Sequence record: PX393108.1
Source of the DNA: a phage
Length of the DNA: 64,000 nucleotides
Direction: 5' to 3' (one strand)
Position 1 is the stretch's first letter. Each line of letters starts with the position of its first letter. Below are positions 15,220 to 64,000 of this stretch, in pieces. Made by a program: the position numbers and the translations under genes. Under the pieces are notes generated by a model that made no database searches, was not told the origin of the DNA, and worked only from the letters and a program-made list of their open reading frames with translations.

Positions 15220-16807
<1,588 letters not shown>

Positions 16808-16814
16808 AATAAAA

Positions 16815-38209: not shown

Positions 38210-38239
38210 TTTGAATAAATATCCTTAAAAGGAGGGTCT

Positions 38240-38896
38240 ATGGCAGCACCTAGAATATCATTTTCGCCCTCTGATATTCTGTTGGGTGTTCTAGATCGCT
38301 TGTTCAAAGATAATGCTACCGGGAAAGTTCTTGCTTCCCGGGTAGCTGTCGTAATTCTTTTGTTTATAATGGCGATTGTTTGGTATAGGGGAGATAGTTT
38401 CTTTGAGTACTATAAGCAATCAAAGTATGAAACATACAGTGAAATTATTGAAAAGGAAAGAAATGCACGCTTTGAATCTGTCGCCCTGGAACAACTCCAG
38501 ATAGTTCATATATCATCTGAGGCAGACTTTAGTGCGGTGTATTCTTTCCGCCCTAAAAACTTAAACTATTTTGTTGATATTATAGCATATGAAGGAAGAC
38601 TACCTTCAACAATAACCGAAAAATCACTTGGAGGATATCCTGTTGATAAAACTATGGATGAATATACCGTTCATTTAAATGGACGTCATTATTATTCCAA
38701 CTCAAAATTTGCTTTTTTACCGACTAAAAAGCCTACTCCCGAAATAAATTACATGTACAGTTGTCCATATTTTAATTTGGATAATATCTATGCTGGAACA
38801 ATAACCATGTACTGGTATAGAAATGATCATATAAGTAATGACCGCCTTGAATCAATATGTTCTCAGGCGGCCAGAATATTAGGAAGGGCTAAATAA
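38240..38896 (+). CDS. t: holin
   Basis: 218 aa; MAAPRISFSPSDIL...VAVVILLFIMAIVWYRGDSFFEYYK matches recalled T4 holin T with one TM helix. Confidence 0.95.
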   Translation: MAAPRISFSPSDILLGVLDRLFKDNATGKVLASRVAVVILLFIMAIVWYRGDSFFEYYKQSKYETYSEIIEKERNARFESVALEQLQIVHISSEADFSAVYSFRPKNLNYFVDIIAYEGRLPSTITEKSLGGYPVDKTMDEYTVHLNGRHYYSNSKFAFLPTKKPTPEINYMYSCPYFNLDNIYAGTITMYWYRNDHISNDRLESICSQAARILGRAK

Positions 38897-62714: not shown

Positions 62715-62911
62715 TTTGAATGCTCTATAATTAATTTTAAGGCTTCTTCATGCACCTTACCTAATTGTATATGTCCAGTTTTAATTGTGTAAGCTTTGTG
62801 GAGCTGATTAGATAAGAGCTCACATACGAGCTCCTTGTCATAATTTTTAAATAGCTGGTCAATACGTTTCTTGTGGGCTTTCTTAAGCTGGCGTTTATTT
62901 AAACGAGCCAT
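62711..62911 (-). CDS. hypothetical basic protein (66 aa)
   Basis: ORF track; ATGA overlaps. Confidence 0.5.
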   Translation of the reverse strand: MARLNKRQLKKAHKKRIDQLFKNYDKELVCELLSNQLHKAYTIKTGHIQLGKVHEEALKLIIEHSK

Positions 62912-63429
62912 TAATAACCTCGGTCTTGACGAGCGAAGTTTTCAGCATTTTTCAGATAATAAAGTTTAAAGATTTCTTCAGCAGTAAGGCCGAGACCTTG
63001 GAACATGTTCAGAACGAAATGAAGAATATCAATCATTTCGAATTTAATTTCCAACTGGTCTTGAGGAGACAAATCAGTAATTAGAGTTTCACGACGTTCA
63101 CCATGCTGCGACTTCCAAGGCTTCCATACAGCAGATGCATCTTTTTCACCATTGCTCATACCACCAAGAGAAGTCAGAAGTTCACGGAATTCATCATCAA
63201 TGTAATCTTTCTGATTACGCAGCCAATCGACAACTTCGCCTGCAGTAGCCAAATCATCAGGATGACGGTTATATTCAGGTTTATCTTTAGCTAAACGAAC
63301 CTGCAAAGATTTCTGCATATCAAGCATAACTTGCAGTGGGTCTTTTTCGTCACCGAGAATATCCCAGTATTCATTTTGAGCTTTATCAGCGCCTTCGATC
63401 AGTTGCGAACATTCATTAAAGTAAGCCAT
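62911..63429 (-). CDS. 56: gp56 dCTPase/dUTPase (MazG-like pyrophosphatase)
   Basis: 172 aa from MAYFNECSQLIEG... with SD GGAAAA; the track's longer N-terminus is hydrophobic and lacks an SD. Confidence 0.85.
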   Translation of the reverse strand: MAYFNECSQLIEGADKAQNEYWDILGDEKDPLQVMLDMQKSLQVRLAKDKPEYNRHPDDLATAGEVVDWLRNQKDYIDDEFRELLTSLGGMSNGEKDASAVWKPWKSQHGERRETLITDLSPQDQLEIKFEMIDILHFVLNMFQGLGLTAEEIFKLYYLKNAENFARQDRGY

Positions 63430-63500
63430 TATTTTTCCTTTCAATTCATGGGTTAGTAGATTAATTATACAATAAATATATAAAGCAATAAGGAGGACAT

Positions 63501-63701
63501 ATGGTACAAAAATTAATGGCACTTGTTAATGCCATAAAAGGTAATAAAAAACGTATAGCTTTTACTATTTCTGCTATGGTAGGAATTTTACTTTGGAATT
63601 TTGTTTTATCACCAATTGCTATTGCTCATGGTGTTAATATTCCAGTAATTACTCTTGATACATTCGTAGATTTAGCATTTGCTTTAGTTGGGTTAATTTA
63701 A
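63501..63701 (+). CDS. small two-helix membrane protein (66 aa) on the opposite strand
   Basis: ATG preceded by AAGGAGGA; hydrophobic segments IAFTISAMVGILLWNFVLSPIAIA and IPVITLDTFVDLAFALVGLI; lies between genes 56 and 61. Confidence 0.4.
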   Translation: MVQKLMALVNAIKGNKKRIAFTISAMVGILLWNFVLSPIAIAHGVNIPVITLDTFVDLAFALVGLI

Positions 63702-64000
63702 ATCTTAGCATATTTAGATAGCCGCATTTTAGCCATCAACCCCTGGGCAATATTATTTTTCATATATTCCATAATTTGTTCAGGGGTTGCACCTTCCTTT
63801 CTAATCATATCATTAACATCTTTTGATTTCCAGGGAGATTTGTCCCAAAACATAACCCTTTCTCCTGCATCAACTAATTTAGTCATTCGTTTAATAGTGT
63901 CAGGATGACGAGGTTCATTATCTAAAACCCACACACGTCTATCTTTAAATGGAACAATTTCTAGGTCTAATTGACCACCTGTAATAGCTATACCATTTTC
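63698..64000 (-). CDS. 61: gp61 DNA primase, C-terminal part (N-terminus beyond window end)
   Basis: Open frame continues to the window edge; assignment by position next to gene 56 and by reading the C-terminal peptide. Confidence 0.55.
   Translation of the reverse strand, partial: ENGIAITGGQLDLEIVPFKDRRVWVLDNEPRHPDTIKRMTKLVDAGERVMFWDKSPWKSKDVNDMIRKEGATPEQIMEYMKNNIAQGLMAKMRLSKYAKI

Follow-up and report, generated by a model that had tools for sequence, protein, structure and literature searches.

The window analysed here is a 64,000-nucleotide stretch of Tequatrovirus DNA (record PX393108.1), which over 501 bp at this locus matches Shigella phage SH-1 and Escherichia virus KFS-EC3 with 100% identity. 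Gene 56 (minus strand, 62911..63429), which matches the Pfam family dUTPase_2 (dCTPase/dUTPase) and whose product is labelled dCTP pyrophosphatase in relatives, is separated from the 3′ part of the DNA primase gene 61 (minus strand, 63698..64000, assigned from relatives' annotation) by a gap of 268 bp (63430..63697; 28% GC), in agreement with the roughly 270 bp between two minus-strand genes given in a preliminary description of this DNA. That description had also reported a 66-codon plus-strand frame with a strong Shine-Dalgarno (SD) sequence in the gap, and we confirmed it: the small ORF occupies 63501..63701 (plus strand, stop included), from an ATG at 63501 to a TAA at 63699-63701, with the SD sequence AAGGAGGA at 63490-63497 and 4 nt between GGAGG and the ATG. 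It is present in the ORF list, has an exact protein match at NCBI, and matches phrog_2024. The small ORF converges on gene 61, and the two TAA stop codons share bases within TTAAA, the small ORF's stop codon being its sole overlap with other coding sequence. We found no paralogue of the small ORF elsewhere in the window. The mechanical ORF list gives gene 56 as 62911..63522 (minus strand), 31 codons longer with a GTG start at 63522, an extension that would cross the promoter region and enter the small ORF; according to the annotation of relatives, the true start of gene 56 is the ATG at 63429 (MAYFNEC...).

When the interval was modelled by first-order Markov surrogates, 1.0% of them contained an ATG-initiated ORF of at least 65 codons, and only 0.02% contained one accompanied by an SD-like motif. 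Measured against these surrogates, the length of the frame is unlikely to have arisen by chance but is not decisive, and it is the comparison with relatives that settles the question. Conservation of the frame, which the preliminary description had named as a check, was examined by tblastn, and the small ORF proved full-length in 687 of the 693 matching phage records, with protein identities that lie at 90-100% within Tequatrovirus and fall to about 50% for Mosigvirus and Gaprivervirus. Within Tequatrovirus, dN/dS was 0.07-0.23 (Nei-Gojobori); between genera, synonymous differences were saturated (pS about 0.75) at a pN of 0.25-0.35, and the protein was still 50-68% identical. Variable sites were distributed over codon positions 1, 2 and 3 as 6/2/11 in Tequatrovirus and 3/1/9 in Mosigvirus, and the single length variant among complete genomes is an in-frame loss of three codons (P0025). 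Although the upstream DNA is unalignable across genera, the SD sequence, the start codon and the length (63-74 aa) are kept, with AAGGAGG, TAAGGAG, CAGGAGG or TGGAGG 4-8 nt 5′ of the ATG in all lineages examined. Because purifying selection acts at the amino-acid level, the peptide itself is what is selected, and on this comparative evidence the small ORF is a genuine, conserved protein-coding gene of T4-like phages and not a chance frame.

The interval also carries signals on the minus strand. A putative gene 56 middle promoter, orthologous to T4 P56/69 and matching the consensus in sequence and spacing, lies at 63464..63489 (minus strand), with a MotA box ATTGCTTTA at 63481-63489, an 11-nt spacer and a -10 element TATAAT at 63464-63469; the published consensus places (a/t)(a/t)(a/t)TGCTTtA 12±1 bp from TAtaaT (PMC2988021). 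In T4, P56/69 starts at 16813, 28 nt before the gene 56 ATG (PMC2988021), which lies at 16785. The position of the -10 element predicts a 28-nt gene 56 leader in the window, equal to that from T4 P56/69, and we infer that the promoter functions in this phage as well. P56/69 is the oriA-associated promoter of T4.

Further into the interval, a terminator-like hairpin at 63506..63535 (minus strand) consists of an 8-bp stem, ATGGCATT/AGTGCCAT, followed by TAATTTTTGT; it falls within codons 2-12 of the small ORF, some 165 nt downstream of where gene 61 ends. Its predicted folding energy is -8.9 kcal/mol (z -2.2), and the single hairpin found compares with 0.8-1.4 expected from shuffled sequences. 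The annotation of Yersinia phage fPS-2 calls the hairpin a terminator; Mosigvirus does not conserve it. It is possible that this statistically unremarkable, Tequatrovirus-specific structure terminates gene 61 transcripts. A search of the interval against Rfam returned no known structured RNA, the one sub-threshold miRNA match being meaningless.

The preliminary description had also allowed for a regulatory interval in which the ORF is fortuitous; conservation would then reflect only the gene 56 middle promoter and a gene 61 terminator. The consensus MotA-box promoter and the terminator-like hairpin fit such a reading, as do the roughly 1% of random surrogates that hold an ORF this long and the lack of annotation in the T4 RefSeq record, JS98 and PEi26. 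Of the 201 bp of the ORF, however, the regulatory signals take up fewer than 60, and the hairpin is not kept in Mosigvirus, whereas substitutions fall mostly at third codon positions with dN/dS far below 1, and motif and length are kept in at least eight genera with otherwise unalignable DNA, the SD sequence and start being kept everywhere. The regulatory half of the suggestion thus stands and the fortuitous half does not; we assign a vanishingly small probability to the interval being purely regulatory.

As a conserved gene, the small ORF is already known, and its family is not a new one. It matches phrog_2024, a PHROG family catalogued as of unknown function, with E 5.4e-31 (residues 2-66 on profile positions 1-65 of 65), and it is named 'dam.1' in phage T4T and RB32ORF030w in RB14/RB32. 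The T4T gene is 95.5% identical and has the same strand, length and convergent gene 61 overlap as in the window, and the RB14 gene is 93.9% identical. Other records call the product 'hypothetical protein' or 'putative membrane protein', and the exact 66-aa protein occurs at NCBI on 100 contigs as 'hypothetical protein'. The ORF is intact but unannotated in T4 RefSeq (NC_000866.4, 17626-17934, a 310-bp dam-61 gap), JS98 (EF469154; locus L016, 701-901), PEi26 (AP014715; locus L020, about 686-868), HY01 and PP01, and the T4-reference version of the protein is present in the protein collection from read assemblies only. Our literature search found no paper naming dam.1 or RB32ORF030w, no T4 ribosome-profiling paper, and no data on a transcript, protein or phenotype of the small ORF.

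Every copy that we examined lies on the plus strand, convergent with the 3′ end of the primase gene 61; the position was checked in the window, T4T, ST0, fPS-2, VR25, LF82-1, L014, JS98 and Marfa, and also in Q7622, CIP9, PEi26, SEA1 and KPV15. This gene-61-adjacent location is common to at least eight genera of Tevenvirinae, the hosts of all family members are Enterobacterales, and a core motif W-N-x4-P-x5-G-x3-P (W32, N33, P38, G44 and P48) is invariant in 11 lineage representatives. Gaprivervirus VR25 (locus L011) bears two tandem plus-strand copies, at 595-792 and 801-1001, one from each of two subfamilies. Subfamily B, which the A1 profile did not reach, was found by tblastn with the second VR25 copy and includes relatives in Dhakavirus (JS98), Marfavirus, Kanagawavirus (Q7622, CIP9 and PEi26), Gelderlandvirus (SEA1) and Jiaodavirus (KPV15). 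The two subfamilies align to each other with an hhalign probability of 96.8% (E 2e-10), and both match phrog_2024, including the subfamily B members JS98, CIP9 and SEA1. The second copy has decayed in TH40 (locus L012), and a partial match to it in phage RZ coincides with an annotated homing endonuclease.

When 1.84 billion representatives were searched exhaustively with an HMM, only six clusters matched, all of them family members or fragments, and an IMG/VR scan returned five loci, all Tequatrovirus. No characterised homologue was found in Pfam, NCBIfam, PADLOC or PDB sequences, and a Foldseek search against BFVD and the PDB yielded no fold match beyond family members. The family appears narrow and phage-specific. 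The polytopic membrane protein NqrE, met in the PDB sequence profile search, scored only 17.7 bits and was judged a compositional match.

The preliminary description had proposed a comparison with the 56-61 interval of T4. In T4, dam lies between gene 56 and the small ORF (in T4T, locus L001, dam occupies 1609-2388), and the small ORF is still attached to gene 61. T4 has dam upstream of the small ORF and a late box of the form GATAAATA, whereas in the window the small ORF abuts the gene 56 promoter and has a box of the form AATAAATA. In the window and in Mosigvirus nothing lies between gene 56 and the small ORF; this slot is filled by dam together with a 186-aa ORF in one Tequatrovirus from IMG/VR (locus L009, 62-1401), by a homing endonuclease in fPS-2 (locus L003, 780-1430), and by a 75-97-aa ORF in Kanagawavirus (loci L018-L020, about 360-680). 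Judged from these layouts the slot is a variable insertion site, and the small ORF stays joined to the end of gene 61 whatever fills it.

The preliminary description had argued that an opposite-strand gene in this region would need its own promoter, and a candidate is present upstream of the SD sequence. A T4 late-promoter -10 box in its A(-13) variant, AATAAATA, lies at 63471-63478 (plus strand; consensus from PMC2988020). Among the T4 late sites listed, 32 of 50 are perfect and nine of 50 carry A(-13), the commonest variant; T4 late transcripts may have either polarity, and how strong the variant promoters are in vivo, one against another, is not known (Geiduschek and Kassavetis, PMC2988020). 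The arrangement at 63471-63478, a TATAAATA-type box with no -35 element and about one helical turn ahead of the putative start site, is that of T4 late genes, whose transcripts appear once DNA replication has begun and depend on gp55, gp33 and gp45; with the box at -13 to -6 transcription would start at about 63484 and leave a leader of about 17 nt. This late -10 box sits within the spacer of the minus-strand middle promoter, so that the two form a divergent, interleaved middle/late pair, which illustrates the tight packing of signals in T4-type genomes.

The late box recurs across the family: of 12 lineage contexts examined, 10 have ATAAATA ending 12-22 nt 5′ of the ATG, at a position kept within otherwise unalignable DNA. 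Lineages with the box are Tequatrovirus (in three upstream contexts), Mosigvirus, Gaprivervirus, Dhakavirus, Marfavirus, Kanagawavirus and Jiaodavirus. Its form is the perfect TATAAATA in Marfa, Q7622 and CIP9, AATAAATA in the window, Mosigvirus and JS98, GATAAATA in T4 and L009, and CATAAATA in VR25 and KPV15; only forms with one mismatch at another place in the box were present in L014 and SEA1, and the second VR25 copy has no late box of its own. The consensus T at -13 is never present in the late boxes of Tequatrovirus, Mosigvirus or Gaprivervirus. Because ATAAATA is rare in the window (17 occurrences on both strands, or 128 kb; 1.3e-4 per position), this recurrence is not chance. The holin gene t of this phage (Pfam Phage_holin_T; 38240..38896 in the window) has AATAAATA at 38214, followed by 18 nt with AAAGGAGGG and then its ATG; the small ORF shows the same order of AATAAATA, SD sequence and ATG. 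These data suggest that the small ORF is probably switched on late in infection. The conserved position, length and motif, the purifying selection and a late box at a conserved distance uphold the idea of an opposite-strand gene with its own promoter; the further suggestion that such a gene may be differently timed is supported by the conserved box, from which late timing would follow.

Downstream of the small ORF, a GC-rich hairpin directly 3′ of the stop codon and before the primase gene was seen in two loci (L014, 3196-3225; L022, 1003-1030), the structures being CTAGGG-cttgt-CCCTAG followed by ATTTT, a T-run, in L014, and AAGGGGC-tttg-GCCCCTT in KPV15. In L014 and KPV15 the small ORF does not overlap gene 61, and in SEA1 there is a gap; lineages whose stop codons overlap gene 61 lack the post-stop hairpin. 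We found no terminator-like site on the plus strand within 2.5 kb downstream in T4T, where late RNA would probably continue antisense into gene 61. One could thus propose that the selected product is the late plus-strand RNA, which would shut primase off late by acting antisense to gene 61, with the peptide secondary. The stop codons overlap in Tequatrovirus, Mosigvirus, Dhakavirus, Marfavirus and some Kanagawavirus, as that proposal would have it, and for T4, transcription of both strands, at different times, is known from several sites (PMC2988020). But the purifying selection is at the amino-acid level and so identifies the peptide as selected, and the hairpin right after the ORF in L014 and KPV15, together with the gap in SEA1, indicates that read-through is not a conserved feature. 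We regard an RNA product as the primary object of selection as very improbable, although antisense read-through may be an extra effect beside the peptide.

An AF2 model built from nine family sequences (pLDDT 76.7) has helices at residues 2-12, 16-42 and 52-63. Hydropathy delimits one full membrane-length segment (about residues 19-42) and a short hydrophobic C-terminal stretch (about 52-66, roughly 15 residues), so that of the two hydrophobic helices first read from the sequence, one is full-length and the other is too short to span the membrane. Residues K4, K13, K16, K17 and R18 precede the segment and D53 and D57 follow it, and the charge bias is positive or neutral on the N-terminal side in all lineages, which suggests an N-in/C-out topology. 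Summed values for the transmembrane segment were -0.9 to +3.7 kcal/mol on a rough Hessa-type scale. The segment is thus only marginally hydrophobic, and stable insertion is for this reason not certain. It contains an invariant Asn, joined in subfamily B by an Asp, and a weak segment with an invariant polar residue points to helix-helix association or possibly to a releasable anchor. The protein ends in ...DLAFALVGLI, its last nine residues uncharged.

We infer that the small ORF is best described as encoding a late-acting inner-membrane microprotein. Starting at the gene's own late promoter, the AATAAATA box, gp55-RNA polymerase would transcribe against the direction of the surrounding early/middle genes, giving a transcript with a 5′ leader of about 17 nt and a strong SD sequence, translated into a predicted 66-aa inner-membrane microprotein. 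Its N-terminal helix, which is amphipathic, and a KxxKKR cluster would face the cytoplasm; next would come a single transmembrane helix of marginal hydrophobicity that bears the invariant Trp32-Asn33, Pro38, Gly44 and Pro48, and the periplasmic side would hold a short acidic loop and the roughly 15-residue hydrophobic C-terminal helix. Because the weak transmembrane segment bears invariant polar and helix-breaking residues, we propose that the protein would pack against another membrane helix, either of its own copies or of a partner, and the likely setting would be an envelope event at the end of infection such as lysis timing or inhibition, or protection of the infected cell. This role is speculative and is put forward with low confidence; since the sequence and fold searches gave no similarity to proteins of known function, it is drawn from the anatomy of the protein.

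A small, membrane-active-looking and probably late protein might instead be a holin or pinholin-like lysis protein, as the copy in Escherichia phage OE5505 is labelled ('Holin', a label from one submitter/UniProt). Holins have at least two membrane-spanning helices (class I/II) or one such helix and a large periplasmic domain (T4 class), and they make lethal lesions in the membrane at a programmed time. The promoter variant and layout are those of holin gene t, in that both genes have AATAAATA, a gap of 18-22 nt with AAGGAGG and then the ATG, and both products have a single transmembrane helix; T, however, is a 218-aa protein with a large periplasmic domain (PF11031) and no sequence or fold kinship to the 66-aa protein. 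Class II holins and pinholins resemble the small protein in size (about 65-70 aa) but have two transmembrane helices, whereas the small protein has one full transmembrane helix (24-27 residues) and a second stretch (about 12-15 residues) too short for the bilayer, with no periplasmic domain. Its hydrophobic C-terminus also contrasts with the charged hydrophilic tail of class I/II holins, and it lacks a lysis-cassette context: no endolysin or lysis gene adjoins it, its neighbours being dCTPase, dam or a homing endonuclease, and primase. No holin match was found in Pfam, the BFVD holin matches had E >7, and these phages already encode holin T. A lysis function of this type is scarcely credible for the small protein, and the 'Holin' label of the OE5505 copy finds no support in the helices, C-terminal tail, gene linkage or profile searches.

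We gave somewhat more weight to the transmembrane segment serving as a cleavable or releasable signal (Sec or SAR-type), the active form then being a periplasmic C-terminal peptide of about 24 residues. The protein has a basic n-region, a hydrophobic core and an invariant Pro at -5, and A-I-A precedes H43-G44 in Tequatrovirus. Its marginal hydrophobicity is near that of the SAR domain of the T4 antiholin RI (+0.7 versus +2.2, on the same rough scale), and there is a weak local match to that domain which includes FVLSP (18 bits, E 0.009, in one comparison). On the other hand, a signal of 42 residues whose core measures 19-24 would be atypical, the residues at -3 and -1 are not consistently small elsewhere in the family (L-V-A, A-A-T and A-S-T), A-x-A being confined to some lineages, FVLSP is confined to Tequatrovirus, and the RI match is within expectation for two hydrophobic segments. 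We therefore consider a signal of this kind improbable. In both RI and the small protein, a predicted envelope protein of the same phage group, Pro follows a weakly hydrophobic membrane segment near the N-terminus; both are small, and 8 of 20 residues are identical locally, FVLSP included. In RI, however, the segment leads into a periplasmic globular domain of 70 residues, which binds holin T, in place of which the small protein has about 24 residues after the segment, and RI lacks its 18-residue cytoplasmic N-terminal extension. The match was not taken to indicate homology to RI: at 18 bits it covers the hydrophobic segment only, FVLSP is not family-conserved, and the likeness is one of analogy.

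Returning to the inner-membrane microprotein, we consider it very probable that the locus as a whole is best explained by a genuine gene with a putative late promoter, a predicted inner-membrane product and a speculative envelope role. A bolder version, in which this overlooked late membrane protein is a new player in envelope control, for example as a transmembrane partner of holin T or of the lysis-inhibition machinery, or as a releasable, SAR-like periplasmic peptide, perhaps with an added antisense effect on primase mRNA, seems unlikely to us. The gene is otherwise ordinary, a conserved hypothetical small membrane protein, and its value lies in annotation and as a knockout target, a cheap one at 201 bp with coding overlap at the stop codon only. 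T4 is the best-studied lytic phage, and omics experiments and screens built on the annotation of NC_000866.4, which is without the gene, cannot see the small ORF. Because the frame is under purifying selection, holds its position in at least eight genera and has a conserved late box, the comparative evidence argues for its entry in reference annotations as a late gene. One database relative, P0036, reads like the small-ORF protein in which numerous residues have become F, I, V or L; such a pattern would fit reads converted from C to T (bisulfite-type data), not a real variant.
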